From contig DATLHO010000169.1 in the NCBI GenBank assembly GCA_035539855.1, positions 23,883-87,882 of the forward strand: a DNA stretch of 64,000 nt. Direction: 5' to 3'. Position 1 is the first letter of the stretch. Every line of letters starts with the position of its first letter. Under the pieces are notes generated by a model. The model was not told where the DNA came from. It worked only from the letters and a program-made list of their open reading frames with translations, and did not search any database. This DNA comes from Candidatus Kapaibacterium sp. Lineage in GTDB: Bacteria > Bacteroidota > Ignavibacteria > OLB7. Shown piece after piece: positions 261 to 61,450 of the stretch. The position numbers and the translations under genes are program-made.

Positions 261-1604
261 ATGCGTGACTGGGAAGGAACGATCGTCGCCCGCAGCACAC
301 CGCTCGGACACGGAGCCGTCGGCATCGTGCGACTCAGCGGACGTGACGCGGTGACCATCGCCGACCGCTTCGTCCGCGTCGGCTCGGGTTCTTCGCTCGC
401 TGATCTTCCGGCGCGCTACCTGGGCGGCGCGGTCATCGAGCGAGACGGCGCGGCGTGGGATCGCTGCCTCGTCGTTCGCTTCGAGGGGCCGCGCTCGTTC
501 ACGGGAGAGGATGTGGTCGAGCTCCACGTTCACGGCAACCCGCTGATCGTCGACGGTGTCGTGGACCTCGCCGTCTCCTTGGGCGCGCGTCGCGCGACGT
601 CCGGTGAGTTCACGATGCGAGCGGTGCTCAACGGGAAGCTCGACCTGCTCCAGGCCGAAGCGGTCGGCGAAGCGATCACCGCCGAGTCCGAGGTCGCCAT
701 TCGCATCGCGCAGCGACAGCTCGGCGGGGAGCTCTCGCGCGCCGTCGCCGAGCTTCGCCGGAGGGTCATCGACGCGATCGCCCGACTCGAGCTCGAGCTC
801 GACTTCGCCGAGGAGGGATACTCGTTCGTCGCGGGCGACGAGCTCCGCGCGTTGGTCGGCGATCTACGACGTCAGATCGAGTCGCTCCTGCGAAGTTTTC
901 GCGGTGGAGAGCGTCTACGAACCGGTCCACGGGTGATCCTGCTCGGACGCCCAAATGCTGGCAAATCGAGCTTCTTCAATTCTGTGCTTGGATATTCCCG
1001 CGCACTGGTCTCCGATGTCGCCGGAACCACTCGCGACTACCTCGAGGAACGTGTCGTGCACGGCGGACTGGTGATACACCTCGTCGACACTGCCGGTCTA
1101 CGCTCGACGGAGGATCTGCTGGAGGCGGAGGGAGTCCGGAGGTCGTGGCGATTGATCGGCGAGTCCGATCTCGCGCTGTACCTGGTCGACGCTTCGGATG
1201 CCGAGGCGGTGGAAGCGAGCGGCCGCGAGCTCGCGGCGTTTGAAGAAGCGTACCCGGATGTTCGCATCGAGCGGGTCTGGTCGAAGGTTGACCGGGTGTC
1301 GGCGCCACCGTCTGGTCTGCGCTGTTCACTCGTGGATCCGGCGTCGGTCGATGCGATTCTGGACCGGATCGCCACACTCTGTGCACGGACTCAGACTGGG
1401 GATGCGGCGCTCGTCTCTCAACGGCAGGCTTCGATTCTCAAGGAAATGGAATCGATTCTTGCCGACGTTCAGCTCGAAGGAGGCGCTGAGTTACTCTCGG
1501 CGGACCTGCGGAGACTCCTCGAGCCGCTCGGCGCACTTTCCGGTGACGTGTCCAACGAGGACGTCCTCGACGCCGTTTTTGGGAATTTCTGCATCGGTAA
1601 GTAG
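261..1604 (+). CDS. mnmE: tRNA uridine-5-carboxymethylaminomethyl modification GTPase MnmE (TrmE)
   Basis: ORF 216-1604. Conserved N-terminus MRDWEGTIVARSTPLGHGAVGIVRLSG begins at 261. G1 P-loop GRPNAGKSSFFNSVLG, G3 DTAG, and the hallmark C-terminal CIGK tetrapeptide. Confidence 0.9.
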   Translation: MRDWEGTIVARSTPLGHGAVGIVRLSGRDAVTIADRFVRVGSGSSLADLPARYLGGAVIERDGAAWDRCLVVRFEGPRSFTGEDVVELHVHGNPLIVDGVVDLAVSLGARRATSGEFTMRAVLNGKLDLLQAEAVGEAITAESEVAIRIAQRQLGGELSRAVAELRRRVIDAIARLELELDFAEEGYSFVAGDELRALVGDLRRQIESLLRSFRGGERLRTGPRVILLGRPNAGKSSFFNSVLGYSRALVSDVAGTTRDYLEERVVHGGLVIHLVDTAGLRSTEDLLEAEGVRRSWRLIGESDLALYLVDASDAEAVEASGRELAAFEEAYPDVRIERVWSKVDRVSAPPSGLRCSLVDPASVDAILDRIATLCARTQTGDAALVSQRQASILKEMESILADVQLEGGAELLSADLRRLLEPLGALSGDVSNEDVLDAVFGNFCIGK

Positions 1605-1619
1605 TTCCACGTGAAACGT
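1602..1619. promoter_or_regulatory. Conserved 18-nt motif TAGTTCCACGTGAAACGT (imperfect palindrome around CACGTG) immediately after the mnmE stop
   Basis: Identical 18-mer recurs at 3484-3501 after the mnmG stop. CACGTG core with GTTc/aAAC flanks. About 26 nt upstream of the mnmG start. Confidence 0.4.
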
Positions 1620-1644
1620 ATCCCCAATACCCGAACGCCTGAAC

Positions 1645-3486
1645 GTGTCTGATTACGACGTCATCGTCATTGGCGGAGGCCACGCCGGCATCGAGGCCGC
1701 ATCCGCAGCAGCGCGGATGGGCTGTCGTACCGCCTTGATCACGATGGACCGCAGTGCCATCGGCAGGCTCTCGTGCAATCCCGCCATCGGCGGTATGGCG
1801 AAGGGTCAGCTCGTGCGCGAGATCGACGCGCTCGGTGGTGTCATGGGGAAACTGGCCGACGAAGCCGGAATCCAGTTCAAGATGCTTGGCCGATCGAAGG
1901 GTCCCGCCATGTGGTCACCCCGCGCCCAGATGGATAAGGACCTCTACCCACTTGCCGCCCAGGCACACCTCGCCTCGATCGAGAATCTCGACATCATAGA
2001 ATCCACGATCTCCGACATCAGGATCGCCTCGGGACGCGTCAGCGGCGTCCACCTGACGGACGGCCGTTCACTTTCGACGCGGGCCGCCGTTCTCTGTGCT
2101 GGTACGTTTCTCTGCGGCACGATGTACGCGGGCGAGCAGTCGACGCCGGGCGGCCGCCTTGGCGAAGACTCCGCCGGCCAGCTCAGTGGGTTGCTCCGAC
2201 AGGTCGGCTTCGAAACAGGCCGACTCAAGACCGGAACGCCTCCCAGAATCGCGGCGGATTCGATTCGATATGAGAGCACGGAATGCGATGGTGGCGACGA
2301 CGATCCGCGCCCCTTCTCGTGGTCCACGCCCTCTGTCGCGAACCGCATCGAATGCTTCATCACCCGCACCAATGAAGCGGCGCACGCGATCCTGAGGACC
2401 GGATTCGACCGCTCTCCGATGTTTACCGGCCGCATCGCCGGTACGGGACCGCGGTACTGCCCCTCTATCGAGGACAAGATTCACCGGTTTGCGGACAAGG
2501 AATCCCACCAACTCTTCCTCGAGCCCGAGGGACTGACGACGGATTCTGTCTACGTGAACGGCTTCTCGACATCACTGCCCAGAGAGATTCAGGAAGCCGG
2601 ACTCCGGAGCGTTCCGGGACTCGAACATGCACGGATTCTCAAGTACGGCTACGCCGTCGAGTACGACTATTTTCCTCCGTATCAGCTAAAACGGACGCTC
2701 GAGAGCAAGCGGGTCGAGGGACTCTATTTCGCTGGCCAGGTCAACGGAACGTCCGGATACGAGGAGGCGGCCGCCCAGGGCTTCATCGCCGGCGTCAATG
2801 CCGCCCTCGGTCTGCGTGGCGAGAGCCCGTTCATCCTCGGTCGTTCCGAGGCCTACATCGGCGTCCTGATCGATGACCTCGTGACGCTGAGCACCGACGA
2901 GCCGTACAGAATGTTCACCTCCCGAGCCGAGTATCGGCTCCTCCTCAGAACGGACAATGCGGACCTCCGGCTCACCGAGCATGGCGCCCGGATCGGACTT
3001 ATCGGAGCGGACCAGCTTGGGCGAGTCCGAGTCAAGGAGACACAAAGTCGGCTGGCCGAGGAGTCGCTTCGCCAAACCCGGATCCGTCCCAGTGAGATCG
3101 GCATCAATGGTGATACCCCGGTCGACCTGTGGTCCGTTTTCCGACGGCCGGATGTGTCTCCCGCCGCGATCGTGGAGTCGCTGCGAGACAGGCAGGAGCA
3201 TACCGCACTCGTCACACAATTGACTCCTCCCGAGATTCTCGAGCAGGTCGAGATCTCCGCGCGATACGAAGGGTACATCGACCGGCAGCGGGAGGAGGTC
3301 GCGCGGCTCGAAAGCTCGGGCGATCACGCGATTCCTGCCGGCATCGACTACTCGGTGATTCGTTCCCTTTCCTCAGAAGCCCGGGAAAAACTGGAGCGAT
3401 TCAGGCCGGAGACCATCGGTCAGGCCGCTCGCATCAGTGGTGTTTCCAGAAGCGATATTGCGGTCCTGCTGCTCTATATTCGCTAG
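1645..3486 (+). CDS. mnmG: tRNA uridine 5-carboxymethylaminomethyl modification enzyme MnmG (GidA), FAD-dependent
   Basis: N-terminal FAD-binding [19 protein letters not shown]. 613 aa, GidA family throughout. Directly downstream of mnmE. Confidence 0.95.
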
Positions 3487-3501
3487 TTCCACGTGAAACG
3501 T
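3484..3501. promoter_or_regulatory. Second copy of TAGTTCCACGTGAAACGT motif, after the mnmG stop
   Basis: Exact repeat of 1602-1619. 18 nt upstream of the next gene start at 3519. Confidence 0.4.
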
Positions 3502-3518: not shown

Positions 3519-4418
3519 ATGAACGTGATGATTGTCGGTGGCGCGGGACTGCTTGGTCAGAAGTTGATCGAGGTTTTTCGACGAGAAACCTCGTTTCGTG
3601 TGACCTCCGTCATCCGAAGCGGCATCGCTGACGCCACCGGCGCCCATTACTTCGACACGAACTCCCGAAGCGCCTGGAAGGAAATAACCCTGCAGGAGCG
3701 CTGGCGGCCGGAGTTCATCATCAATGTCGCGGACGCCTCCGATCGCAACGCGCCGCTCCCCAGTCGCGAGCAGATCTGGCGATCGGGCGTCACCCTCGTC
3801 GAGCTCCTTGCCGACGTCTGTCGCCGGATCGACGCGCACCTGATCCAGACGTCCTGCGACTCGATCTTCGACGGTCAGAGCGGACCGTACCATGAGGAGC
3901 ACAAGCCGCAGCCGGGCAGCTATCTCGGCAAGGCCAAGCTTGCCGCCGAGAACATCTGCCGCCAGACGGGCATCCGGCATCTGATTCTCCGCACCATGTG
4001 GCTCTACGGCAGCGCTGAAGGACGCACCCCAACGTTGGTGGATACCGTCGAGCGCGCCCTCGAGACCGGCGCCCCCGTCATCGCCTCCGACGCGGTCACC
4101 GGCACGCCGACGCGAACCGACGATGTCGCGTACGCGATGGTGCGGGCGGTCGAGACCGCGGCTGACGGCGTCATCCACGTCGCCGGTCCTGATCTCGTCA
4201 CGGAGGCGGAGTACGTCACAGCGATCGCCCAGGCAGCAACACGCAACCGCGGCATGCCACTGCGCATCATTACGCCCGATCCCGACCTCAATGCCTCCCG
4301 GTCCGGACTGATCTCGATTCGAACCCGGGGCCTTCTGGCAGTCCGTCCGCTCGCGCTCACAACTGGCCTCGAATCGTATTACATTCAGCGCGACCGCCGC
4401 ACCTGGCGCGTCCACTGA
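3519..4418 (+). CDS. NAD(P)-dependent sugar epimerase/reductase (RmlD/dTDP-4-dehydrorhamnose reductase-like)
   Basis: Start chosen at MNVMIVGGAGLLGQKL (Rossmann GxxGxxG). The long ORF 3129-4418 overlaps mnmG, so the internal ATG at 3519 is preferred. 300 aa, SDR-extended fold. Confidence 0.6.
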   Translation: MNVMIVGGAGLLGQKLIEVFRRETSFRVTSVIRSGIADATGAHYFDTNSRSAWKEITLQERWRPEFIINVADASDRNAPLPSREQIWRSGVTLVELLADVCRRIDAHLIQTSCDSIFDGQSGPYHEEHKPQPGSYLGKAKLAAENICRQTGIRHLILRTMWLYGSAEGRTPTLVDTVERALETGAPVIASDAVTGTPTRTDDVAYAMVRAVETAADGVIHVAGPDLVTEAEYVTAIAQAATRNRGMPLRIITPDPDLNASRSGLISIRTRGLLAVRPLALTTGLESYYIQRDRRTWRVH

Positions 4419-19833: not shown

Positions 19834-20268
19834 GTGTCCGCGCTTCCCGAGCACATCACGCTTCGCACCGGCGAGAGCATCCCCGTTTCCAGCCTCGAGT
19901 TCGCGACAAGCCGCAGCGGCGGTCCCGGCGGGCAGAACGTCAACAAGGTCGAGACGAAGGTCGAGGTCCGCATGGCGATCGCCGAGTCGGAGCACCTGCG
20001 CGAGAGCACGCGTTATCGACTGCTCGAGAAGCTCGCGACGCGCCTCGACTCCGGCGGGGTGCTCCGGCTGACCAGCGCGACCGAGCGCACGCAGCTCGGC
20101 AACCGCCGTGCGGTGCTCGCGCGCCTCGCGATGCTGCTCGACGTCGCGCTCGAGCCGGAGAAGAAGCGGGTGGCGACGCGGCCGAGCCGGGGATCGAAGG
20201 TGCGGCGCAGGGAGTCCAAGGCGAAGCACGCCGAGAAGAAGGAGCAGCGGAGATGGAAGGGCGAATGA
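19834..20268 (+). CDS. arfB: Alternative ribosome-rescue factor ArfB (peptidyl-tRNA hydrolase, GGQ release-factor domain)
   Basis: 144 aa, GTG start. SRSGGPGGQNVNKVETKVEV GGQ motif. Basic C-terminal tail (RRESKAKHAEKKEQRRWKGE) typical of ArfB/YaeJ. Confidence 0.8.
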   Translation: MSALPEHITLRTGESIPVSSLEFATSRSGGPGGQNVNKVETKVEVRMAIAESEHLRESTRYRLLEKLATRLDSGGVLRLTSATERTQLGNRRAVLARLAMLLDVALEPEKKRVATRPSRGSKVRRRESKAKHAEKKEQRRWKGE

Positions 20269-34895: not shown

Positions 34896-35372
34896 ATGGA
34901 AGACTTCGGATCGATCATTCAGGCGACGCTCACTCCGGTCACGCTGATTTCCGGCGTAGGGCTGCTGCTGTTGAGCATGGTCAACCGCTACAACCACGCG
35001 CTCGACCGCGTTCGCCAGCAGCTCCGTGAGCTGCACACGCGATCCGAGGCCGAGCGCCAGAAGATCACCTACTCGATCGACATCATCTACGCGCGCTGCC
35101 GGCTGATCCGGCGCGCGATTCTCTGCGTCGCGATCAGCGTCGTCGCAAGCGGCGCGATCGTGTTGCAGACCGCCGTCGAGGCGCTCTTCGGATTTCAGGC
35201 CTTCGCGGTGAAGGCACTGCTCCTCGTCGTCTCCATCGGCCTCGTCGTCGTCGCCGCGATCCTCTTCGTCATCGAGATCACGTATTCGCTCCGTGCGCTC
35301 GAGATCGAGATGGAGGACGAGATGGTGCCGCGCAGCATGCTCTCGATCAGCCGGCGCCGCCGGGCTCAGTAG
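34896..35372 (+). CDS. DUF2721-like membrane protein
   Basis: N-terminal …LTPVTLISGVGLLLLSMVNRYNHALDRVRQ and two further TM helices. Assignment from memory of the family consensus. Confidence 0.5.
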   Translation: MEDFGSIIQATLTPVTLISGVGLLLLSMVNRYNHALDRVRQQLRELHTRSEAERQKITYSIDIIYARCRLIRRAILCVAISVVASGAIVLQTAVEALFGFQAFAVKALLLVVSIGLVVVAAILFVIEITYSLRALEIEMEDEMVPRSMLSISRRRRAQ

Positions 35373-36499
35373 CGCAGCAGCGCGGCGGCGGGCGCATCGT
35401 TCGGCAGTCGCTCGTGCACCGTGCAGAGGGTGCCCGAATTGCGCACGACGTTGTTGACGGCGCGGCCGAGCGGCTCGACGCCGAGGCCGCCGTAGTGCGC
35501 GCCGATCGCGCGATGATGATCGTCGGTCGCGATGAACAGCGTGCCGATCTGACCGGTCGACGAGCGATCGGCGATCTCGAGCGTGTCGAAGAGCGTTGTG
35601 GGCGTGCCTGCGTTGCGGCGCAGGCGATCGACCGCGTCGGCGTTGCCGCGCAGCAGGGTGGGCGCGACGAGATCCCACGCGCGCCGATGCAGCAGCGCCG
35701 TGGTCGTCGTCACACCGACGCCGCCGGCGACGACCGACGGGTACGTGCTGACCGAACGGTACATCGCGCGCGCCTCGGCTACGCCTGCGAGCACCAGCGG
35801 CGCGCCGCTGGACCCGATGATCCCCATCAGGCGGCGATCGATGGCGTGGAGGAATCCCTCGAACTCCCGCTTCGCGCGCTCGCGCCGGCCGGGACTTCCA
35901 TGGAACACGCCACCCGCCTTTCGATGACTTCCTCCCGCGCCCGCGGAGAGCGCGGTGCTCGCGGCGGTGTGCATCTGCGACGCGCGCTCGAACTTGAGCG
36001 TCGCGAGATACTCGTCGAAGGCCGCCGGAATAGTGCCGAGCGACTGTTCGATCATCGACTGCCGCGTCGCGCGGAACAGCCGGACCTCGCGACGATCGAT
36101 CGCGAGAATGAAGAACGTGCCGTCGTCGACAGCGAGCTCGACAAGCGGAAGCAGGTCGAAGCACGTGTCGACCCGCACCATCTCGGGGATGTCGACGGGC
36201 AGCCGGTACATTCTCAGAAGCTCGGGTGCGCGGAAGATCACGACGCCGTGCTCGGGGTCGCGCCACAGCTCGCGCTGGCCGGCAAGTGACTCGAGCGGCC
36301 GCATCACGTCGTCGACAAGCTTCTCGTCGCCGATCCTCTCGTGCAGTACCCCTCTCGCGATGCGAACCAGGTTGCGCGCGCGGGTCATGTCGATCCGGAG
36401 CCCGGATCCGGCATGCCTCGGCGGCAGGTAGATCGAAATGCAGGCCGGCGAGGTCACCGCCGCCAGGCTCGTCAGATCGTCGCGGGTAAAGCTCACCAT
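35366..36499 (-). CDS. Conserved hypothetical protein (377 aa), possible eRF1/Dom34-like (bacterial aeRF1-family) fold
   Basis: Pattern DDL…PxxSIYLPxxRxG…LWRDPEHGVVIFRAPELLRMYRLP…TFFILAIDRREVRLFRAT… resembles widespread bacterial release-factor-like unknowns. No GGQ motif. Low-confidence family call. Confidence 0.5.
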   Translation of the reverse strand: MVSFTRDDLTSLAAVTSPACISIYLPPRHAGSGLRIDMTRARNLVRIARGVLHERIGDEKLVDDVMRPLESLAGQRELWRDPEHGVVIFRAPELLRMYRLPVDIPEMVRVDTCFDLLPLVELAVDDGTFFILAIDRREVRLFRATRQSMIEQSLGTIPAAFDEYLATLKFERASQMHTAASTALSAGAGGSHRKAGGVFHGSPGRRERAKREFEGFLHAIDRRLMGIIGSSGAPLVLAGVAEARAMYRSVSTYPSVVAGGVGVTTTTALLHRRAWDLVAPTLLRGNADAVDRLRRNAGTPTTLFDTLEIADRSSTGQIGTLFIATDDHHRAIGAHYGGLGVEPLGRAVNNVVRNSGTLCTVHERLPNDAPAAALLRY

Positions 36500-37985: not shown

Positions 37986-39860
37986 ATGATGTCCGTCGCA
38001 AGTGTCCTCTCCCGGCCCTTACGCATCGCGCGGATCGGTTTTTCGGTCGCGCTGGGTGCCGCTGTGCTGCCGGTTATTACCGCCGCCCAACAGTCATCGA
38101 TCGACCCGCTTGCGCCGGGTGCCTGTCAGATCTCTCCGAGTGGTACGCTCGAGGGGTGGCTTCCGGCGGCCGGTGCGGTGACCGAAGAATACGGCCGAGG
38201 GGTCTTTGCTGTCGGTGATGCGAACGGCGACGGTCTTGGCGACTGGGTCATCGAGCATTATTTGTCTGACACGCTATACGCCAACCCTAGAAGCGGAGTC
38301 AAGAACTACGGTAACGAACTGCTTCTCTACTACGGTGTAGAAGGAGGCCACCCTGCCGCGCGCTCAGGTCGCCGTCTCGGGCCAACAGAACGATCGACGT
38401 TGAGTACTTTTCTTGGCGCCGGTGACTGGGACGGAGACGGTCATCGCGACGTCGTGTTGTTTGAGCACAGTTTATTCGATACCAGCTCGGGCAACGTCCG
38501 CGAATCGGTGATTGGCAACGTCGTCACTTACTGGGGCAACGCTTCCGGTGCGTTGTCGAACGACGACACGACGCGTCTCTCCTGCGGCGTCGAGTGGTGG
38601 ATAGAGCCACAGTGGATCGATGGCCGCCTCGGCCAGGACGCCGACGGAGACGACATCGACGATCTCGCGATCATCTCGCCCAACGATGGCTTCGCCGACG
38701 GCAGCCGGCGTCCGATCCCACGACTTCATGTGTTCACCGGCGGCCGCACACGCTGGCGGGGCAAACCCGGCGCCAATCGAGCCTCGACGGTCATATGGAA
38801 TCTGCCCGATATCGGTCTCGATCGCTGGATCGCGGGACAGTGGATCGACCACGACCGTGACGGCGCCCTCGACCTCGCTCTGCGCTACGACGTCTATGCA
38901 TCACCGGCTTCGGTTGCCGTCGTGTACGGGCGCCGCGGAGGAGAGCTCGATTCCACCGCGATGGAGTCGCTCACGCTGAGCGGCGATAGCATCGGGTACT
39001 CGCCAAGGTTCATCGACGTGACCGGCGATCGGGTGCCGGAGCTCGTCATGGCCACCGGCGAGCTCTCGACGATCCGCATCTACCTCGGACTTCGTGGCCA
39101 GCGGCTCAAGAAACAGTTCGGCTCCGGTCTGGAGCCTCCGAATCCCGGCGCTGCGGAGTACTGGGGGCGACCTTGGGCACAGATCATGTTGCCGCGAGCC
39201 CTGTCGCCCGATTGGCCGTTCGGTGGGTACGGTCCGATCTTCGATCTCGGAAATCTTGGTCGCGACGATGTCGACGATATCGCTTCGTTCGCGCGACCCT
39301 ACATCACTGTCTACAACGGAGGCAACCGCCTCGACAGCCTAGTCGACGGTTTGGTCGACGTGCCGGAGACCGACATGCTTCCCGGATTTTTCCGCAACGT
39401 CGTCTGCCGTCTCGGCGACATCGACGGAAGCGGTGTCGAGACGATCGCGGTCGGCTTCGGCGGCGCGAAGTACGAAGGCTCCTACCGGCATGGAGCGGTG
39501 CTGTTCTTCAAGCCGAGCTGGTGCGTGCCGCGCGAAGGACGCTACCGCGAACTGCCGCCCGGCACCGATCGACCCGCCCTGGTCGACGAAAAGGCGCTCG
39601 CGGCCGCGGCAGGCGACGAACTCGAATTCTCGATCTCACCGGTTCCCTCCGATGGACCGATCACTGCGCGCTGGGCTCCGCGTGCCGGCGCGGCAGTCAT
39701 CACCGTGAGTGACGCACTCGGCCGCGTCGTGTATCGAAGCGCATCGTCATTGATGCTCGCGAGCACGAGCGTCGACCTCGCCGGGTTGCGTCCTGGAACG
39801 TACCTCGTCACCCTGACCACCGGTCAGCTCCGCAGCTCCCGCCCCCTCGTCGTTCGATAA
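37986..39860 (+). CDS. Secreted FG-GAP/VCBS-repeat protein with T9SS-type C-terminal sorting domain
   Basis: Signal peptide. Repeated Ca-binding-like DxDxDG motifs (GDANGDGLGDWVI, GDWDGDGHRDVVL, DADGDDIDDLAII, DHDRDGALDLAL, GDIDGSGVETIAVG). CTD …ELEFSISPVPSDGPITARW…VITVSDALGRVVYRS…GLRPGTYLVTLTTGQLRSSRPLVVR. Confidence 0.75.
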   Translation: MMSVASVLSRPLRIARIGFSVALGAAVLPVITAAQQSSIDPLAPGACQISPSGTLEGWLPAAGAVTEEYGRGVFAVGDANGDGLGDWVIEHYLSDTLYANPRSGVKNYGNELLLYYGVEGGHPAARSGRRLGPTERSTLSTFLGAGDWDGDGHRDVVLFEHSLFDTSSGNVRESVIGNVVTYWGNASGALSNDDTTRLSCGVEWWIEPQWIDGRLGQDADGDDIDDLAIISPNDGFADGSRRPIPRLHVFTGGRTRWRGKPGANRASTVIWNLPDIGLDRWIAGQWIDHDRDGALDLALRYDVYASPASVAVVYGRRGGELDSTAMESLTLSGDSIGYSPRFIDVTGDRVPELVMATGELSTIRIYLGLRGQRLKKQFGSGLEPPNPGAAEYWGRPWAQIMLPRALSPDWPFGGYGPIFDLGNLGRDDVDDIASFARPYITVYNGGNRLDSLVDGLVDVPETDMLPGFFRNVVCRLGDIDGSGVETIAVGFGGAKYEGSYRHGAVLFFKPSWCVPREGRYRELPPGTDRPALVDEKALAAAAGDELEFSISPVPSDGPITARWAPRAGAAVITVSDALGRVVYRSASSLMLASTSVDLAGLRPGTYLVTLTTGQLRSSRPLVVR

Positions 39861-39888: not shown

Positions 39889-42800
39889 ATGACACCCCAC
39901 CCGCGATTCACCTCGGGCCCATTGGCCCTATTCCTCTTTGTTGTGTTTCTCGCGCCATCGTCCGGCAAGGCGCAATCGAGCGGACGCTACCGCAATTTCC
40001 ATTACGACTCCACGTTCCACATCGGCAGCCATAACCTCAGCCTCGTCAGGCTCGCGAAGGACACGATCGGCTTCGATTTCAATTACAACTACGCCGCCGA
40101 CCTGGCCGGCATCCGCGCACTGCTGAACACGCCCGACAGTCTGCTCACCTGGGGCCAGATCTACGAGAAGCGATACTATCTAGCAGCCGACACATGCTCG
40201 TTCGGGCTCATTTTCACACCGAGCCGCTTCAAAGCGCTGGAGGGGGAGAGCAGCGATGGCGCGCAGGGGGGTAGCTTTCGATGCCAGGACAATTACGTTC
40301 GTGGGGACGCCAACCTGCAGCTCCTCGACTATGCCGACGCGCCGCCCGCAAGTGGTATCTGGGCTAGCGCCATCGACGGTCAGGTAAGCGCTCTGGAGAT
40401 TCCGAAACTCGCTTCGCCTGTGAATCAGACAATCATAACGATGCCCCGGTATGTGTCGACTCTAGGACTTCACCTGCCAAGCACGAAATTCTACGACAGC
40501 GCTACGATGGGTGACCATCACCTGGGACCGGACAGCCTCCGGTATCGATTCAAGATCGGTTTCCATATCGTAGCTCCGGACATCATTGAAGTCGATCCGA
40601 CAGACACGATTGCGTACGCCACGTTCTATCAGCGTGTCGATACGTTGCAGGGTCAGGAAAGCACGGACTGCCGCTGCCGGATCTATGAGCCGTTCGAAAC
40701 GCTCGTCGTCACGCGAGCCACATACTTAGACAATGACCTTTCACCGCTGGTTGGTGGGGTTGAAGGCAATTACCGGGACGTTAGTAGGTGGATCGATATC
40801 CGCGGCGGGTGGTACCATCCCGCGCCGGGCCAGTCGTTTCGGTCACGCCTCGGAGACTGGCTTGGAAGCCTCAATGCAGGTCCATGCACATCCATCGGCC
40901 CGCAGCGCACCTGTGCCTCGCTTCTGCTGTGGCTCCGCGACACACTACAGATCCTGGACCCCGGCTCGCTGTCACTTTCAGACGATGCCCTTGAATCCGA
41001 TCTGATCTTTAGCTTCACCACGACACGCCGCACGAAAATCAGGTACCTCAGAAGCCGTGTATCGTCGCACGCGTTCGAGGCGCTCCAGGCCGGTACACTT
41101 GACGACTGGCTGAAGGAGGAGATCGCTCTCTTTTACACGGACAGCGTTCTCGCCCCCATGCGGCGGCAACTCCTACGCTTCGGCGTTTACGACGAACCGC
41201 ACTGGCCGATGTATCCGGCGAACCGACTGCTCGCGCTCAAGCTCCAGGACTTCATCGAGGACGACAGCGCGGGCGACCGCCGCGGTCTCTTCCAGAACCC
41301 TACTACTAGCTTCGACAGTTATCGCACGTTTCTCGGTGATCTGAATCCCAACCAGCGCAAGGCCATTCACCAGATGTCGCGTCAGCTCTTCAACGTCATC
41401 GGGGGGCCCGTGCCGGTGCGATATGCCAACCCCGATTTCATGGATGATGCGGCCCTCGAGTCATTCTACGCGCCGAATGGCACCGCGGGCTTTCCCAAGA
41501 TGATAGCGCTGACCTCGCCGACTGATTACCAGGCGTATCTCTATCGCACGCAGAAGTACGCCTTCGGTAAGTATTTCGACCACAACAATAACGACCTGCC
41601 TGACTCCGCCCAGACGACAGTCAAAGGCGCCCTCGTTCCAATGCTCGGTCGCTTGGTCGACGTCGGCAGATTCAAGTATCAGAATCGCGTTCGCGACAGC
41701 GTTCCGATCTGGAACGTCGTGCAGACGTCGGGCTGGCTTCCCGAAGCCGGCAACGTGGAGGATACGCTCGGGTACCGCGGCCTATGGTCGCAGCGGCTCG
41801 TCACGCCTGAAGAGGTGGCGGCTCAATGCTGGCTCTCGCTCAACGCGGGCGTCCAGGGTCTCGAATTCCAGGAGCCGGCGTTCGACGGGCCGAACGTCGG
41901 CTACGTCGATCAGTTCCTTGGGACCGGCCGCGTCAAATGGGCGCTACCGTTCGATTCGCTCGGCAACGGCGAGTATGACACCGCCACAGCGAGCCATAGC
42001 AAGTTTTGGGAGGGGACGCCGAAAACTCAGTGGCGATTCCCGAAGATGTGGCTCGGCTTTCGTACGCGGTATCTCGCAGTCAAGCGTATCATCGCCGAAC
42101 TCCGCAGAATCGATACCGTCTACTCGAGATTGTACTATCGCAAAGAGCAGATCTCAATTTTCGATACGCGGCAATCCCTCGACACGTTCCCGTTGGTTCA
42201 GTCACTGCAGACGCGGCTTGCGCGACGATTCCCGAACAGCAGCGGCGGCTTTGGCGATTCAACAGTGGTCGATGCGCGCGATTCGACCTATCTCGAGCTG
42301 ACACATCTCTATCCGGGTCCGCGTGATACCGTCGCCTTCCGTCGCGGTGCACGATATCTGGTTCTGACGAATCGCCGCACGTGGCCGATCGATACGCTCA
42401 CGTACTCCAGCCGCACGACCCAGTACGGATCTGCGACGCGCGGTTATGGAAACATCGACGTCCGCCGGCCCCTCGTCGTCCTCAAGAACACGACAGGAGT
42501 CATTGCCGACAGTTTCTTCGTCGAGAAGGTCGGCTACGAGTCGACAACAAGGGACACGGCACGCTTCGGGGACACCGTCGTCCTCGGCTGGCTCGAGCCT
42601 GGCTGGGGAGCACTGTATCGAATCACGCCGTTGCCGAGCGGAGTCTCACAGGGCGGCACCTCGTACAACAACGTCATTCACAGCATCAATCCGTCGACTC
42701 GTGACAGCGTTTGCGATCGCCTCGTCGTCTACGAGAAGGACTCGATCGTCTACCTGCGTGCGGTCGATTCGACCGGCAAATGGAGTCGCCCGTGGCGTAT

Positions 42801-45000
42801 CAGTGATACAACCGACATTCGTGACAGCTCGTCGCCGTGGCTGCCGCGCGCCAGGAATTTCCATCCGGCCGTCGCCGTCACGCCCGGCGGGACGTCGGCA
42901 CTCGTGGTCTGGGAGCGCTGGCACGTCGATTCCTCCGCCGCCTCCGTCGAGGCCTTATGGATCGAGAGCCGGCCGAAGGCATCGGCCGCCAACATCGGCG
43001 ACAGCATTCGATTCCATGTCACGCGCGACCGCCTCAGGACGAATCCCCTCGATACGTTGGGTTTCGCTCCGGCGGCCATCGGAATTGACGGAGGCTATGT
43101 CATTGCCTATGCGACCGGCAACGAGCATGGGATGAGCCTGACGGTATTGCAGGACCAGCCGTATGGCCTCGTCTCCGGCACAACGAACGATACGGCGAGC
43201 GCGCATGCCATCTGCTGGAACTGCCAGGGCACGGCGTTGCCACCCCTGATCGACAGCACGTCGTACTTCCCCACGCTCGCCTACGTTCGCAACGAGGGCA
43301 TCGTCCCGTTTGTCAATCATTGGCGGTGGTGTGGGACCGGTCCTGGCGACTCGATCGTTCCCTCGAACATGTCGGCGCATGTCGTACACCTCGCCTACCA
43401 GCAGGGTAGGCTGCACCTTGCCAACGCGCAGTACATCATGTACAACCAGGCGGCGATCACGTTTCGGCAGAACCAGTTCCCCTCCTATCCACCCGCGATC
43501 TGGATCTCGCCGACGGAGCACGTTAGTGCGGGACTTCCCGGGTGCGGCTTCCTTCATCCTTCGATCGCCGCCGACTCGGTGCTGACCGGCGTAGCGTTCC
43601 AGGCGCACTCGAGCGCTCGCCGGCGCGTCGTGCTACGCTTCCGAGACACGCTGACGTTCCCGGTCTTCAAGGCAACGTGGAAAACGCCAACATATGCCTG
43701 GGCAGAGCGGAGCACCGATTGGTACGAATGGCCCTCCGCAACGCAATTCCCGGCCCTGCCAATGACGGCACTCAGAGGTGCGACCGGCGGGCCCAAGGGA
43801 GGTATCGTCTGGTATCATTCCAACGACACAACGGGCGTTACGCCACAGTATCTCTATCGCTACGGCTATGCGGCGGTCGAGAGAATTCCGAACGGCCAGT
43901 ATCCAACGCTGACGCTCGTTCCGTTTCTCGATACGCTTCCATTTGAATCGTCCAGCATCTTCTATCGAGGGGATACCTCGTCACAATATCTGGGACCGCG
44001 ACCCGGCCTTACGACCGGCACATACTATCCGGCCGCTCTGTTGAACACAGGCACTACCCGATCATCCCTGTTCCGCACAGCAGTTGAGGACAACATCGTA
44101 CACGGTGTCGATATCCGGACGATTTCGGAGCGCAACTGCTCACCTTTTGCCATCCGTGATCGTGATATCAAGGCGGGCCTCTTGACGATGACAACCATCA
44201 CAGAGACCGGGGAGGTCGCGACGTCGGCGACGACGCCGGGGCTTCCTCCGTCGTTCTTTGCCGAACCGATCAACGACAACACGGTGGTCGAATCGCTCGA
44301 GCAATCGGAGCGAGTTGCACGGACGAGTGTCTTTGCGACCACGGCGATCAATCAAGCGATTCGCCGGCAGGTCTCACGCGCGAGCAACGTGATGTCGTGG
44401 CTTGATGGCGAGCCCTACGACAGTGTGCTTCAGCGCGACGCGGACGTTTGGGTACTCACGGAACTCGTACGTGCGGCCGACAGCGTCGTGCTATGGCACG
44501 ACGATACGATCTCCGTTCGCGCGATGACGGTCGACTCACTCGACGAGAGCGTCGAGGTACCGACGAGTACCTACGCGGCACCCAACACGCCTGTCTTCGT
44601 GCGCCTGCGCGTCGAGGCGACCGAGGGTCTCGCGTACGTTCTATCGGCTGGCTTCGAGTGGTCCCGCACGGGACCGCCTTTCACACCTAAGCCAGGCAGG
44701 CGCTTCAAGCAGCGGCAGAATGTACTGGACGCTGGTAGCGAACTGTCGGTTATGGTTCATCCAATTCCGGCTTCGGAGGAACTGCAGATATCGGTTCTCT
44801 CGAAATCATCGGGCCGACTGACGTACATGCTGCGAGACAACCGGGGGTTAGCCGTCGGCGCGCCCGGCACAACCACGGTCTCGGCGGATCGCCCGGCAAT
44901 CGTTCCGTACGATCTGCGGGATGTTCCGAGCGGAAGCTACTATCTCGAGGTCACCGTTAACGGCAATCGCGTCGTCACGAAGGTCTCCGTGCTCCGTTGA
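39889..45000 (+). CDS. Giant secreted protein of unknown function (1703 aa) with T9SS-type C-terminal sorting domain
   Basis: Signal MTPHPRFTSGPLALFLFVVFLAPSSGKAQ. W/Y-rich, no recognised catalytic motif. C-terminus …ELSVMVHPIPASEELQISVLSKSSGRLTYMLRDNRG…SGSYYLEVTVNGNRVVTKVSVLR fits the CTD consensus. Begins 29 nt after the FG-GAP gene, so likely co-transcribed. Confidence 0.75.
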   Translation: MTPHPRFTSGPLALFLFVVFLAPSSGKAQSSGRYRNFHYDSTFHIGSHNLSLVRLAKDTIGFDFNYNYAADLAGIRALLNTPDSLLTWGQIYEKRYYLAADTCSFGLIFTPSRFKALEGESSDGAQGGSFRCQDNYVRGDANLQLLDYADAPPASGIWASAIDGQVSALEIPKLASPVNQTIITMPRYVSTLGLHLPSTKFYDSATMGDHHLGPDSLRYRFKIGFHIVAPDIIEVDPTDTIAYATFYQRVDTLQGQESTDCRCRIYEPFETLVVTRATYLDNDLSPLVGGVEGNYRDVSRWIDIRGGWYHPAPGQSFRSRLGDWLGSLNAGPCTSIGPQRTCASLLLWLRDTLQILDPGSLSLSDDALESDLIFSFTTTRRTKIRYLRSRVSSHAFEALQAGTLDDWLKEEIALFYTDSVLAPMRRQLLRFGVYDEPHWPMYPANRLLALKLQDFIEDDSAGDRRGLFQNPTTSFDSYRTFLGDLNPNQRKAIHQMSRQLFNVIGGPVPVRYANPDFMDDAALESFYAPNGTAGFPKMIALTSPTDYQAYLYRTQKYAFGKYFDHNNNDLPDSAQTTVKGALVPMLGRLVDVGRFKYQNRVRDSVPIWNVVQTSGWLPEAGNVEDTLGYRGLWSQRLVTPEEVAAQCWLSLNAGVQGLEFQEPAFDGPNVGYVDQFLGTGRVKWALPFDSLGNGEYDTATASHSKFWEGTPKTQWRFPKMWLGFRTRYLAVKRIIAELRRIDTVYSRLYYRKEQISIFDTRQSLDTFPLVQSLQTRLARRFPNSSGGFGDSTVVDARDSTYLELTHLYPGPRDTVAFRRGARYLVLTNRRTWPIDTLTYSSRTTQYGSATRGYGNIDVRRPLVVLKNTTGVIADSFFVEKVGYESTTRDTARFGDTVVLGWLEPGWGALYRITPLPSGVSQGGTSYNNVIHSINPSTRDSVCDRLVVYEKDSIVYLRAVDSTGKWSRPWRISDTTDIRDSSSPWLPRARNFHPAVAVTPGGTSALVVWERWHVDSSAASVEALWIESRPKASAANIGDSIRFHVTRDRLRTNPLDTLGFAPAAIGIDGGYVIAYATGNEHGMSLTVLQDQPYGLVSGTTNDTASAHAICWNCQGTALPPLIDSTSYFPTLAYVRNEGIVPFVNHWRWCGTGPGDSIVPSNMSAHVVHLAYQQGRLHLANAQYIMYNQAAITFRQNQFPSYPPAIWISPTEHVSAGLPGCGFLHPSIAADSVLTGVAFQAHSSARRRVVLRFRDTLTFPVFKATWKTPTYAWAERSTDWYEWPSATQFPALPMTALRGATGGPKGGIVWYHSNDTTGVTPQYLYRYGYAAVERIPNGQYPTLTLVPFLDTLPFESSSIFYRGDTSSQYLGPRPGLTTGTYYPAALLNTGTTRSSLFRTAVEDNIVHGVDIRTISERNCSPFAIRDRDIKAGLLTMTTITETGEVATSATTPGLPPSFFAEPINDNTVVESLEQSERVARTSVFATTAINQAIRRQVSRASNVMSWLDGEPYDSVLQRDADVWVLTELVRAADSVVLWHDDTISVRAMTVDSLDESVEVPTSTYAAPNTPVFVRLRVEATEGLAYVLSAGFEWSRTGPPFTPKPGRRFKQRQNVLDAGSELSVMVHPIPASEELQISVLSKSSGRLTYMLRDNRGLAVGAPGTTTVSADRPAIVPYDLRDVPSGSYYLEVTVNGNRVVTKVSVLR

Positions 45001-57817: not shown

Positions 57818-58911
57818 GACGCACCTCGCGGGCCGCCGCGATTGGAGCCACGACCTCCGCCAGTGCCGGAGCCACGACCTGATCGGCCCGCGACCCGCGA
57901 ATCATCCGACGCATCCCGGTCAGCCGCGACGACGGCGCCCGTGAGCTCGAAGAACGCACTCGAGAGGTCGGGAGGATGCTGCTCGAAGCGAGACACCGCG
58001 ATCTCGAGCGCGCGCAACGCATCGAGTGCGGGCTCGGGTCCGTGGAGGGGAACGCTGCGCGTGATCGTGATGACCGCGCCGTGAATCTCGACGCGAACTC
58101 CGCCACCGGCGCCGCTCGCACCACCGGCGCGCTCGAGTGCGTCGCGCAGCGAGGCGGGATCGTGCGGAATGCGCGCGAGCTCGATGGTCGTGCGCGCGCG
58201 GCCGTGTGACGCGACGAGGGCGGAGGGCGCGTCGTCGGCAACGATGCGCCCGGCGCTCAGCAGCACGATGCGGTCGCAGTGCGCCTGGACGTCGGCCAGG
58301 TCGTGCGTGACGACGAGCAGCGTGTGTCCTCCGTCGCGCCACGCGACCAGCCGGCGCCAGAGCGCGGCGCGGCCGGAGGGATCGAGACTCGACGTCGGCT
58401 CGTCGAGCAGCAGCAGCGCGGGCGCGTGCATCGTCTCGATGGCCAGGTGCAGCCGCTGGCGCTGTCCGCCCGAGTAGCCTGCGACGCGCCGCTCGACGAA
58501 CGATCCGAGCTCGAGCTCCTCGACGATCGCCGCGATGCGTCGCGTTCGCTCGCCATGGGGAAGTCCCCGCAGCGCGTAGAACAACCGCAGCGTCTCGGCG
58601 CCGGTGATCTCGCCGTCGAGCGCGAGATCCTGTCCGACGTATCCCGTCATCGTCCGAAAGGCCGCGTCGCTCGTGCGTGGCGTCGCGCCGAAGACATCAA
58701 CCGTTCCCGCGTCGGGAGCGATCACGCCCGCGACGATGCGCAGCATCGTGCTCTTGCCGGAGCCGTTGGCTCCGGCAAGAGCGACGAGCCGTGCGGGCTC
58801 GATGGCGCAGTCGATGCCGTCGAGCGCGTGCACGCCGGCGAAGCTGCGCCGGACGCCGGCCAGCCGAACCGCCGGCGCGACGTCAATCGGCGTAGACGAT
58901 CGTTCCGACAT
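57814..58911 (-). CDS. ABC transporter ATP-binding protein (partner of the ABC-2 permease)
   Basis: Walker A GANGSGKST. Signature YSGGQRQRLHLA. Walker B LLLLDEPTSSLD. Start MSERSS at 58909-58911 preferred over the extended ORF to 58989. Overlaps the permease start by 4 nt. Confidence 0.8.
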   Translation of the reverse strand: MSERSSTPIDVAPAVRLAGVRRSFAGVHALDGIDCAIEPARLVALAGANGSGKSTMLRIVAGVIAPDAGTVDVFGATPRTSDAAFRTMTGYVGQDLALDGEITGAETLRLFYALRGLPHGERTRRIAAIVEELELGSFVERRVAGYSGGQRQRLHLAIETMHAPALLLLDEPTSSLDPSGRAALWRRLVAWRDGGHTLLVVTHDLADVQAHCDRIVLLSAGRIVADDAPSALVASHGRARTTIELARIPHDPASLRDALERAGGASGAGGGVRVEIHGAVITITRSVPLHGPEPALDALRALEIAVSRFEQHPPDLSSAFFELTGAVVAADRDASDDSRVAGRSGRGSGTGGGRGSNRGGPRGAS

Positions 58912-59707
58912 GCTCGCCGGCGACCGCCGCGGCGATGCGCTCGGGGTCGCGTCCGTTGACGAGCTGGAACTGCTTGACGAGTCGTGCATTGGTCAGGAGA
59001 TCCGGAAGAACCTCGTCGAAGGGGAGGGTCTTGAGGTTGCGGCGCTTGAGCTCCTTCGCGCCGATCGAATCGATGAACGACGCGTTGCCGTTGAGCTTGG
59101 GATCCTCGGTGTACAGGCCGTCGACGTCCTTGACGAACGTGACGGTCTTGGTGCCGAAGCACTCGCCGAGGATGAAGCAGCCGGCGTCGGTGCGATGCGG
59201 CGGGATGCGTCCGACTCCGGGAGGATGCTCCCAGAGCGAGTACGGCGGCACGCCGTTGAAGATGACGCCCGGCGCCGAGTGGATGAACAGCGGAAGCAGG
59301 TGGCCGAAGATCTCCGGCGGGATCGCGACGACACCGTACTGCGACAGCAGCGTGCCGAGGATGTGCGCGTTGCCGAGCGCGTCGGCGACGGACACCTGCG
59401 CGAGCACGCCGACGGGCAGCCCGAGGTCGATGCCGATCGACCAGACGTGTCGGCTGCGGACGCCGCCGCCGACGCCGAGGATGAGCTTCTCGCTCTCGAG
59501 CAGCCGCGCGAGCACGTCGACGACCGGATAGGTGAGCGCCTTGCCCTGATCGATGATCGAGCGGCCGCCGATCTTGATGATGTGCGCATTCGGAAGCATG
59601 CGCACGACCGGCGACTCAGTACGCGCCATCACCTGCTTATCAAGCAGGCTCTCGCGCATCAACATCGAATTGACATGATGCCGCGAATCAACAGGTATAT
59701 CAGCCAT
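58883..59707 (-). CDS. Amino-acid-kinase-fold protein, molybdenum-storage-protein subunit-like (MosA/MosB family)
   Basis: IIKIGGRSIIDQGKAL…LGVGGGVRSRH…PPYSLWEHPPGVGRIPPHRTD…VKDVDGLYTEDPK… mirrors the UMP-kinase-like MoSto pattern. Tandem paralog of the next gene, at the head of the mod cluster. Confidence 0.65.
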   Translation of the reverse strand: MADIPVDSRHHVNSMLMRESLLDKQVMARTESPVVRMLPNAHIIKIGGRSIIDQGKALTYPVVDVLARLLESEKLILGVGGGVRSRHVWSIGIDLGLPVGVLAQVSVADALGNAHILGTLLSQYGVVAIPPEIFGHLLPLFIHSAPGVIFNGVPPYSLWEHPPGVGRIPPHRTDAGCFILGECFGTKTVTFVKDVDGLYTEDPKLNGNASFIDSIGAKELKRRNLKTLPFDEVLPDLLTNARLVKQFQLVNGRDPERIAAAVAGEHVGTIVYAD

Positions 59708-59759: not shown

Positions 59760-60581
59760 TCAATCCGCCGAAATAATCGTCCCCACTTCTTCGCCTTCTA
59801 GCGCCCGCGTGAGGTTTCCGGGAACGAGCCCGTTGATGATCTGGATCGACCGGCGGCTCTCGGCGTTCTCCATGAGATCGAGCACGGCGCGCTCGACGAC
59901 GACATCGTCGAGGTCCATCTCACGAAGCTCGCCGAGCGTGATCTTCGGGATGAACTTCGCGTGCTTCTCCTTCTTCGGATCGGCCGTGTACAGTCCGTCC
60001 TCGTCCTTGACGTAGATCATCGAGCGCGTGCCGAAGACCTCGCTGATGAGGTAGCAGCCGGTGTCGGTGCGATGCGGTGGGATGCGTCCGATCTCGGGGT
60101 TCTTCTGCCAGAAGGTGTACGGCGGCATGCCGAAGAAGACGACCGCGCCGCGCTCGGCGAGGTACAGCGGAAGCTGTGGGAACTGCACCGGCTCGATGAA
60201 CGGGATGCCGTGCTTCGCCAGCAGGTAGTGCAGCATGCGCGCGTTCTGCATGCTCACGAACGTGCCGAGCACGCTGAGCACGCCGGTCGGCATGCCGAGG
60301 TCGATCCCGACGCTGTATGCGTGGCGCGCGCGCGTGCCGGCGCCGGTGCCGATGATCATCTTGTGCCGGCCGAGATTCGCGACGATCTCATCGATGATCG
60401 GGAACACCGCGCTGCGGCCGCGATCGATGAAGCTCTGTCCGCCGATCTTCACGACGTTGGCGTTGGGGAGAATCTGCAGGACCGGATGCTCGTTGGTGCG
60501 CGCGAGCAGCTCGAGATCGGTGATGTTACCGTCGACGAGCGCGCGACCGAGGTCGGTCAGGACTTCGTTCTGCATGGACAT
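59760..60581 (-). CDS. Amino-acid-kinase-fold protein, molybdenum-storage-protein subunit-like (MosA/MosB family)
   Basis: VVKIGGQSFIDRGRSAV…IIGTGAGTRARHAYS…GMPPYTFWQKNPEIGRIPPHRTDTGCYL…VKDEDGLYTADPKK…VNGLVPGNLTRALEGEEVGTIISAD closely parallels Azotobacter MosB as recalled. Start MSMQNEV (60579-60581) preferred over the Arg-rich N-terminal extension of the longer ORF. Confidence 0.7.
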   Translation of the reverse strand: MSMQNEVLTDLGRALVDGNITDLELLARTNEHPVLQILPNANVVKIGGQSFIDRGRSAVFPIIDEIVANLGRHKMIIGTGAGTRARHAYSVGIDLGMPTGVLSVLGTFVSMQNARMLHYLLAKHGIPFIEPVQFPQLPLYLAERGAVVFFGMPPYTFWQKNPEIGRIPPHRTDTGCYLISEVFGTRSMIYVKDEDGLYTADPKKEKHAKFIPKITLGELREMDLDDVVVERAVLDLMENAESRRSIQIINGLVPGNLTRALEGEEVGTIISAD

Positions 60582-60658
60582 ATTGGTTGAATGTGCTGGG
60601 ACCGAAACAGGGGCGAGGTTCTGCGCGCAGGGGGAGGGCGGCAAGACTCGCAATTTAG

Positions 60659-61450
60659 TCACTGATGTCGCGTTCGGATCGCATGGAGCTCGAATAATTC
60701 CTCCTGTACGATCTCCAGGTCGATGTCGCCGTAGCGCCCGCGCGCCCATCGCTCGACCTCGTCGAGGACCGCGCTCTTGACGTCGTCGGGCAGCACGAGA
60801 GCGCCGAGCCCTTCCTTGCCGCGCCACGACGCGATCGATTCCGCCGGAGAGTGCACGGTCAGCCACCGCGAGGCGACGCTCGGCTCGGCTGCGAACGCGC
60901 CGCGCGCGACGAGCGCTTCGAACACGCGCGCGGTGTGGTCGTCGTGACTGCGCGCGTCGAAGCCGTGCTCGCGCAGGGTTCGTCGCATCTGCCGTCGCAT
61001 CTCGGACTTCACGGAGTCTTTGGGACGCCGCACCTTCCCGACGATGAGCGATCCTCCGGGGCGAAGCACGCGCTCGAGCTCCGCGACGACGTGCTCCGCG
61101 GCCATGTGGTGCAGCGCGCGGGCGCAGAAGACCAGGTCGATCGAGCGATCGTCGGCCGGCCAGCGCTCGTTGCCGTCGGCGACGACGAGCCGCGCGCGCA
61201 GTCCAGCCTGCTCGACCTTCGCGCGGACGACCGCCAGCATCTCCGGCGAGCGATCGAAGCCGGTGTACTCGACCGCGTCCTCGAGCAGGTGGATCGTGAT
61301 CAGACCGGTGCCGACGCCGGGCTCGAGCACGGTGGTGCCGGGCGTCAGAGGGACGATCGTTTCGATCATCATGGCGACGTCGAGGGCGGCTTCCTCGGGG
61401 ATGCCGGCGCGGTCGTCGTAGTTGGGGGCCTGGTCGTTGTAGAGCATCAA
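60659..61450 (-). CDS. Class I SAM-dependent methyltransferase
   Basis: Motif I VLEPGVGTGLITIHL. Post-I …YTGFDRSPEML. Motif …LRPGGSLIVG. 263 aa. Confidence 0.75.
   Translation of the reverse strand: MMLYNDQAPNYDDRAGIPEEAALDVAMMIETIVPLTPGTTVLEPGVGTGLITIHLLEDAVEYTGFDRSPEMLAVVRAKVEQAGLRARLVVADGNERWPADDRSIDLVFCARALHHMAAEHVVAELERVLRPGGSLIVGKVRRPKDSVKSEMRRQMRRTLREHGFDARSHDDHTARVFEALVARGAFAAEPSVASRWLTVHSPAESIASWRGKEGLGALVLPDDVKSAVLDEVERWARGRYGDIDLEIVQEELFELHAIRTRHQ

Follow-up and report, generated by a model that had tools for sequence, protein, structure and literature searches.

Known chromosomal parS sites and similar elements

The parS site is the bacterial "centromere" sequence at which ParB loads for chromosome segregation, and mnmE and mnmG are classical origin-region genes. 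The chromosomal parS consensus, TGTTNCACGTGAAACA, is the Bacillus subtilis Spo0J/ParB site, reported in the survey of Livny et al. 2007 as cited in PMC7022226. Two mismatches is the commonly used limit for calling a parS site (PMC10197239). Species with characterised ParB systems can vary at the outermost bases; the S. pneumoniae consensus, AGTTTCACGTGAAACT, has A at position 1, and the M. xanthus consensus, TGTTCCACGTGGAACG, has G at position 16 (PMC7022226). A second kind of site in the same family is the NBS, bound by Noc, a ParB paralogue of Firmicutes. The NBS resembles the motif described below in being a 16-bp palindrome, and it is read by a ParB-type helix-turn-helix (HTH) and CTP clamp. 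Its half-sites carry A at position 1 and C at position 6, its copies are spread over the whole chromosome, and Noc occurs only in Firmicutes (PMC7383237).

Two predicted parS sites bracket mnmG

The window, by which we mean the whole 64-kb stretch of DNA that was analysed, contains two copies of an 18-nt motif on either side of mnmG. We predict that both copies are chromosomal parS sites, the ParB loading sites of a ParABS system, with a probability of roughly 0.92. The features involved are as follows.

261..1604, + strand: mnmE, tRNA modification GTPase (Pfam TrmE_N, MnmE_helical, MMR_HSR1), upstream of parS-1
1603..1618, no strand: parS-1, predicted, 16-bp AGTTCCACGTGAAACG, core 1604-1617; consensus match 14/16, core 14/14
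1645..3486, + strand: mnmG/gidA (Pfam GIDA 1.4e-152, GIDA_C_1st, SAM_GIDA_C), between both predicted parS sites
3485..3500, no strand: parS-2, predicted, identical 16-bp AGTTCCACGTGAAACG, core 3486-3499; consensus match 14/16, core 14/14
3519..4418, + strand: RmlD-like NAD-dependent epimerase/reductase (Pfam RmlD_sub_bind, Epimerase), downstream of parS-2

The sequence-only reading from which this analysis started had already picked out two exact copies of TAGTTCCACGTGAAACGT, one at 1602-1619 and the other at 3484-3501, and described them as an imperfect palindrome (GTTcCACGTGaAAC); both descriptions are accurate, and both copies read on the + strand. Its naming of mnmE and mnmG is borne out by the Pfam matches. 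The TAG at the 5' end of the 18-mer is, as it had said, the stop codon of mnmE in copy 1 and of mnmG in copy 2, and the next starts, GTG at 1645 and ATG at 3519, lie 25 and 17 nt further on. The 26 and 18 nt given earlier are these same distances counted inclusively. The TA at the beginning of the 18-nt identity is there because the stop codon is common to both copies, and what carries meaning is the 14-bp core, at 1604-1617 in copy 1 and at 3486-3499 in copy 2. The first core base of parS-1 is the G of the mnmE stop (TAG, 1602-1604), and parS-2 likewise overlaps the mnmG stop (TAG, 3484-3486). These overlaps arise because the spacers are very short, 40 nt between mnmE and mnmG and 32 nt between mnmG and the RmlD-like gene.

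The 14-bp core, GTTCCACGTGAAAC, is identical to that of the parS consensus. Over 16 bp, the match to TGTTNCACGTGAAACA is 14/16 with both mismatches at the outermost positions, so both copies are 16-bp palindromes within the usual limit of 2 mismatches to that consensus. The outer bases at both sites are A...G in place of T...A. These are minority variants; among 174 sites in relatives, A is found at position 1 in 12% and G at position 16 in 10%. Each is shared with one of the two characterised variants from S. pneumoniae and M. xanthus, but each of those is either symmetric or different at the central variable base, whereas the motif here has A at position 1 and also G at position 16. Because of that combination, the outermost pair is not self-complementary. 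The half-sites, GTTCCAC and GTTTCAC, carry G at position 1 and A at position 6, which is the parS type. Together with the Bacteroidota-related host, those two bases rule out an NBS, and the two clustered copies also differ from the scattered distribution of NBS.

Copy number and chance occurrence

The motif does not recur elsewhere in the 64 kb, as had been claimed; a search for the 18-mer allowing up to 3 mismatches gave 0 further matches on either strand, and 0 were expected from shuffles. The estimated chance expectation for the core, GTTYCACGTGRAAC, is ~0.001 copies in 64 kb, assuming uniform base frequencies. The earlier view of the motif as a non-random palindrome of the kind recognised by proteins is correct. 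Repetition of an 18-mer is not by itself unique in this GC-rich window, where five other 18-mers recur exactly, all of them GC-rich. Half-parS sites (GTTYCAC) show no enrichment, with 10 in the window and an expectation of 11.5 ± 3.3, and no further parS site occurs in the 64 kb or in the 7.4 kb upstream. The two sites are separated by 1882 bp; the copy number is low and the copies are clustered.

Short imperfect palindromes just 3' of stop codons are also characteristic of REP/BIME elements. Those occur in hundreds of copies, whereas this motif has two and is conserved across phyla. A REP-like dispersed repeat is ruled out by the count of 2 copies in 71 kb, with 0 more at up to 3 mismatches. 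The sequence-only reading had named hundreds of copies at random genomic positions, or a lack of conservation in related genomes, as grounds for abandoning its interpretation; neither applies, and the density in relatives away from mnmG is 0.015 per kb.

Conservation beside mnmG

The relatives of the host belong to the Bacteroidota/FCB group. The comparison took in 160 loci of mnmG in other bacteria, predominantly FCB-group members, comprising 80 genome loci and 80 metagenome loci, the latter from relatives at no more than 56% identity and used as an independent replicate. The labels on these loci include Bacteroidota, Ignavibacteria, Chlorobi-type, Rhodothermales, Caldithrix, Neomarinimicrobiota, Zixibacteria and Nitrospira. 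On the upstream side of mnmG, a parS with an exact core was present within 200 nt in 46/79 genome loci and 44/78 metagenome loci; the corresponding counts on the downstream side were 30/80 and 27/73. Site density near mnmG compared with the rest of the flanks was 2.69 versus 0.016 per kb in the genome set and 2.75 versus 0.015 per kb in the metagenome set, an enrichment of ~170-180-fold in both. More than half of the 160 loci have a parS beside mnmG, including loci with no parAB in the 10 kb around that gene.

The full gene order is shared with the two closest relatives, L001 (Kapaibacterium) and L002, including the position of the RmlD-like gene. In both, parS sites are present at the mnmE-mnmG and mnmG-rmlD-like junctions, so the comparison of orthologous junctions that had been proposed earlier finds the motif conserved at the same two places. 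When these spacers are aligned with those of the window, the parS core is the sole conserved stretch. The exact 18-mer is also found in strain variants of the host from four metagenome assemblies, which differ at 1.8% of overlapping bases and keep all 18 nt.

This conservation bears on whether the sites are still in use. They might be relics whose ParB has been lost or has changed its specificity, and the departure of the outer bases from consensus and the failure to find a ParB gene within 71 kb could be read that way. Against this, both cores are perfect and identical, the strain variants retain the motif intact, and without selection a 14-mer would not have been kept free of changes at both junctions in relatives with only 63% MnmG identity. 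ParABS homologues are also present in both Bacteroidetes genomes examined in PMC10197239. We give disuse almost no credence.

Overall, the pair resembles B. subtilis-type chromosomal parS in its identical 14-bp core, its 14/16 match, its low and clustered copy number and its conservation at orthologous positions, as well as in adjoining the origin-region genes mnmE/mnmG and, to judge from a closely related strain, possibly in lying near a DnaA-box cluster. It differs in the outer bases, A and G here but T and A in the consensus. The predicted parS pair is a real but ordinary feature of DNA that probably lies near an origin, and elements of this kind are well known. Only the breadth of conservation of the parS-mnmG-parS arrangement, which extends the known distribution of parS, is mildly new. 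A bolder proposal, to which we attach only a slim chance, is that the tight bracket is a selected, ancient arrangement going beyond the joint proximity of its parts to oriC. If so, ParB occupancy could possibly tune mnmG expression with the replication cycle, or mnmG transcription could possibly aid the loading of ParB or condensin.

Regulatory and RNA-level readings

The sequence-only reading had offered three functions for the motif: a transcription-factor operator, an RNA processing site or a translational coupling element shared by the mnmE-mnmG-rmlD-like string. In the first, a dedicated transcription factor other than ParB would co-regulate the three genes. The palindrome is of the size used by dimeric HTH regulators, and it sits in intergenic spacers just 5' of two gene starts. 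Those 40- and 32-nt spacers look like operon-internal junctions rather than promoters, and no promoter-like site is present near either copy. The sequence itself is that of parS, and the literature searched gave no non-ParB bacterial regulator with this exact site. Nor is the motif specific to the gene string, as it flanks mnmG whatever the neighbours, mnmE being directly upstream of mnmG in only 25/80 and 29/80 loci of the two sets. A dedicated operator is therefore very improbable. The term "operator-like" is true only loosely, in that an HTH protein dimer binds parS. Some regulatory effect of the parS sites is nevertheless possible, because ParB represses genes beside intergenic parS in P. 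aeruginosa and V. cholerae (PMC7022226).

The other two functions would require an element acting in a polycistronic mnmE-mnmG-rmlD transcript, whether by processing, as a terminator or attenuator, or by translational coupling. Both copies do belong to the transcribed strand, each beginning with a stop codon and ending 17-25 nt before the next start. Nothing in the analysis points to processing or coupling, however. Shuffled sequence folds at least as well as the junction RNAs (z +0.57 and +0.95), and no terminator-like site occurs at either motif. No stable hairpin is possible, since the palindrome has no spacer and carries a C·A mismatch. In relatives the distance from parS to the stop or start codon ranges from -20 to +186 nt, some sites lying within the 3' end of mnmG itself, and even the syntenic L001 and L002 do not preserve the overlap with the stop codon. 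Covariation between core positions 4 and 11 was intended to separate a hairpin from independently read half-sites. An association between them is seen (odds ratio 4.2, p = 4e-6), but it is confounded by lineage, and 32% of the sites are asymmetric; the non-pairing C/A combination occurs in 44/210 sites. An RNA-level element is thus extremely improbable.

Partition genes and the candidate origin

Neither parA nor parB was found by Pfam or tblastn in the 64-kb window or the 7.4 kb upstream (71 kb in all). The tblastn probes were approximate ParA and ParB sequences, together with real ParA and ParB from the loci L035 and L069; against the window they gave nothing at E<=1 except two noise matches. 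With no parB in the 71 kb, we therefore infer a cognate ParB for the host. Among the loci of relatives, ParB was confirmed in L035 and L069 only, and parAB lies within 10 kb of mnmG in only 2/160 loci. L035 and L069 have the classical order mnmG-rsmG-parA-parB, whereas parAB is not beside mnmG here.

The upstream flank was reached through look-ups with MnmE and an MBL-fold protein; the exact-protein look-up with MnmG returned no record. A candidate oriC lies ~5.6 kb upstream, outside the window, in L081, a contig of a 98.2%-identical strain. It consists of six relaxed DnaA boxes in ~200 nt, where the background mean is 0.18 per 400 nt, alongside a stretch of 75% AT. The cluster is detected only with the relaxed core TSCACA; strict boxes (TTWTNCACA) number 0 in the window or L081, with ~0.8 expected by chance. 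The orthologous spacers of L001 and L002 do contain clusters of TTWTNCACA boxes, several of them perfect TTATCCACA. No dnaA gene is present in the window or L081, and the candidate region could instead be the regulatory region of the hsp20-dnaK genes. GC skew was rejected as a means of locating the origin; in the window its sign tracks the coding strand, with negative skew over + strand genes and positive skew over - strand genes.

Proposed mechanism

The following steps are those established for the ParB family. If the two sites function as parS, a ParB dimer would recognise each half-site (GTTCCAC or GTTTCAC) through its helix-turn-helix domain. Binding of CTP would then close ParB into a clamp, which would leave parS and slide onto the flanking DNA, building a partition complex of ~10-20 kb over the mnmE-mnmG region. 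With the sites 1.9 kb apart, a single partition complex is expected. ParA would move this complex, and the complex would load SMC-type condensin near the origin. The compact operon offers no other non-coding DNA, which would explain why the sites abut stop codons, and any effects on the expression of mnmE, mnmG or the RmlD-like gene would follow only secondarily from the presence of ParB.

Significance

Once the motif is recognised as a predicted parS pair, there is no need to propose a new regulatory or RNA element, and a false lead is removed. The pair would mark the contig as origin-proximal, with a probable oriC a few kb further upstream, which is of use in orienting and closing the genome of a high-GC relative of Kapaibacterium from a lineage that has been little studied. 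More broadly, parS directly adjoins mnmG in most of the FCB-group genomes sampled, and a parS beside mnmG could serve as an origin/centromere marker in metagenome-assembled genomes.

Two predicted parS sites beside mnmG

The 18-mer TAGTTCCACGTGAAACGT occurs in two exact copies, each beginning with the TAG stop of the preceding gene and ending 25 nt (mnmG) or 17 nt (RmlD-like gene) before the next start codon:

261-1604, mnmE (Pfam TrmE_N, MnmE_helical, MMR_HSR1)
1602-1619, + strand, first motif copy (predicted site parS-1)
1645-3486, mnmG (Pfam GIDA, 1.4e-152)
3484-3501, + strand, second motif copy (predicted site parS-2)
3519-4418, RmlD-like gene (Pfam)

These positions and gene calls agree with the sequence-only reading, which had reported the motif after both stops and nowhere else in the 64 kb; no further copy appears on either strand of the window even at ≤3 mismatches. 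That reading also held exact 18-nt identity to be improbable by chance. This stands insofar as shuffled sequence is expected to contain no copy, but the repetition is weaker evidence than was taken, because five other 18-mers, all GC-rich, recur in this GC-rich window. The 5' TA of the match is explained by the stop codon common to both copies. Apart from the 18-mer, the spacers bear no sequence relationship to each other. An 8-mer, TGAACGTG, is found at 1640-1647 and 3520-3527 across the start codons (mnmG, GTG 1645; RmlD-like gene, ATG 3519), followed by TGATT in both cases; its recurrence is probably chance plus N-terminal coding similarity.

The 14-bp core of the motif, GTTCCACGTGAAAC, is the core of the chromosomal consensus TGTTNCACGTGAAACA of parS, the ParB loading site of the ParABS chromosome segregation system. 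The 16-mers at 1603-1618 and 3485-3500 agree with TGTTNCACGTGAAACA at 14 of 16 positions, both mismatches being outermost, and a search of the window with TGTTNCACGTGAAACA at ≤3 mismatches returns these two sites only. A table of this consensus with the variants of individual species is given in PMC7022226; since parS is AGTTTCACGTGAAACT in S. pneumoniae and TGTTCCACGTGGAACG in M. xanthus (PMC7022226), both outer deviations occur within accepted parS consensus sequences. Operationally, parS has been defined by ≤2 mismatches (PMC10197239). The nearest sibling of parS is the binding site of the ParB paralogue Noc, where half-site positions 1 and 6 are A and C, respectively (PMC7383237), whereas the motif here has the parS-type G and A at those positions. 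Noc is found only in Firmicutes (PMC7383237). We predict, with a probability of about 0.92, that both copies are ParB sites, that is, the long-known element parS.

The sequence-only reading had proposed a transcription-factor operator, an RNA processing site or a translational coupling element. An operator dedicated to a regulator other than ParB is unlikely and has no positive support; the core is that of parS, and a promoter-like site is absent from both junctions. We also argue against an element acting in RNA, since the predicted folds of the junction RNAs are no more stable than those of shuffled sequence (z +0.57 and +0.95), no terminator-like site lies at the motif, and the distances from site to stop and site to start, which bear on a processing or coupling signal, vary among relatives. 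A REP-like repeat, raised earlier as something to check, is ruled out by the two copies in the window and by half-sites that are not enriched. The two variable core positions (4 and 11) covary across sites (odds ratio 4.2, p = 4e-6), but this association is confounded by lineage, and 32% of the sites are asymmetric.

Conservation beside mnmG in relatives

In a species-representative genome collection, the nearest MnmG relatives are just 63% identical. They come from a Candidatus Kapaibacterium (L001; Bacteroidota, FCB group) and a second MAG (L002). Both share with this organism the full gene order pepM17, HSP20, DnaK, orf100, DUF1573, mnmE, mnmG, rmlD-like, MBL, orf144, TPR. The sequence-only reading had suggested comparing orthologous spacers, and L001 and L002 do carry the parS core at the same two junctions, where alignment shows it to be the sole conserved part of the spacers. 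The site lies 7 nt past the mnmE stop in L002, and 33 nt (L001) and 22 nt (L002) past the mnmG stop; the stop-codon overlap is not conserved and is due to the very short spacers of this genome. All 18 nt are kept in contigs of the same organism or close strains from four metagenome assemblies. One of these contigs, L081, shares 98.2% identity with the window across a 2.4-kb overlap.

The remaining MnmG relatives are mostly labelled as FCB group (Ignavibacteria, Bacteroidota, Chlorobi-type, Rhodothermales, Caldithrix, Neomarinimicrobiota, Zixibacteria), with a few Nitrospira or Syntrophorhabdus.

Exact matches to the core GTTNCACGTGNAAC around mnmG in relatives
80 genome loci: ≤200 nt upstream 46/79, downstream 30/80, both 21; 2.69 per kb in flanks, 0.016 per kb elsewhere (1.3 Mb); 1 site inside mnmG
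80 metagenome loci: ≤200 nt upstream 44/78, downstream 27/73, both 15; 2.75 per kb in flanks, 0.015 per kb elsewhere; 1 site inside mnmG

More than half of the 160 loci, from several phyla, have parS within 200 nt on either side of mnmG, where it is ~175-fold denser than in the remaining 10-kb flanks. Taking as little as a tenth of the flanking DNA to be intergenic, a proportion that was assumed and not measured, parS would remain more than tenfold enriched relative to other spacers. Of 174 sites in relatives, 69% have T and 12% have A immediately 5' of the core, and 75% have A and 10% have G immediately 3' of it. The motif had been assigned to the mnmE-mnmG-rmlD-like string, but mnmE lies directly upstream of mnmG in just ~1/3 of the loci, so the motif travels with mnmG. 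A Rhodothermus locus (L023) and a Rhodothermales locus (L049) each have six exact-core sites ≤10 kb downstream of mnmG. Some of these sites are tightly grouped, 40-120 bp apart, and the clusters are much denser than the two sites here.

Position relative to a candidate origin

Pfam and tblastn searches found no dnaA, parA or parB in the window. L081 reaches 7.4 kb further upstream, and no cognate ParB gene was seen in the combined 71 kb; it would lie outside. The classical order mnmG-rsmG-parA-parB occurs in only 2 of the 160 relatives' loci (L035, Zixibacteria; L069, Nitrospira), both verified by Pfam as real ParA and ParB.

The 401-nt pepM17-HSP20 spacer (L081:3038-3438, about -4327 to -3927 in window coordinates) has six DnaA-box-like motifs with a TSCACA core within ~200 nt, two of which form the inverted pair TGTCCACA-acg-TGTGGACA. 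A 40-mer of 75% AT comes after them. Over the 71 kb, TSCACA averages 0.18 per 400 nt, and the maximum of 6 is attained in this spacer only. In L001 and L002 the orthologous spacers have clustered DnaA boxes of the form TTWTNCACA, and several of these boxes are perfect TTATCCACA; a DnaA-box cluster is found within the fetched mnmG flanks at 23 of 166 loci. The spacer is a candidate oriC, predicted at ~5.6 kb from parS-1, a geometry expected for parS. It could instead be the regulatory region of hsp20-dnaK. From 1 to about 48 kb, where genes lie on the + strand, GC skew is negative, and at 53-64 kb, where they lie on the - strand, it is positive; it tracks a C-rich coding strand and is therefore useless locally for placing an origin.

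Other features of the window

mnmE and mnmG have a GC3 of 0.74, below most window genes. Further features are as follows:

19834-20268, +, small RF-1-domain gene, ArfB-like
35366-36499, -, bacterial archaeo-eukaryotic release-factor-like gene, baeRF family 3/7
37986-39860, 624-aa FG-GAP-repeat gene
39889-45000, +, 1703-aa ORF, no Pfam match
58883-59707 and 59760-60866, -, neighbouring amino-acid-kinase-family genes
59151-59266 and 60028-60143, 116-nt direct repeat (79% identity) within these kinase genes

The kinase genes are tandem paralogues. The 1703-aa ORF has a GC3 of 0.73 (0.85-0.9 in most neighbours), equal to that of the preceding FG-GAP-repeat gene; regional GC falls to about 0.60 there, and this region may be acquired DNA.

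Proposed role

By analogy with the family, the two parS sites would nucleate ParB dimers, and CTP-dependent clamp closure would free ParB to slide onto adjacent DNA; the resulting complex would be segregated by ParA and would recruit SMC condensin. In V. cholerae and B. subtilis, ParB spreads over ~16-18 kb, and only a minority of the genes in that stretch are silenced, so any effect on the expression of mnmE, mnmG and the rmlD-like gene would be secondary. No description of parS bracketing mnmG across phyla came up in the literature searched. What is mildly new is how tight and how wide this bracketing is in the FCB group, even without adjacent parAB.
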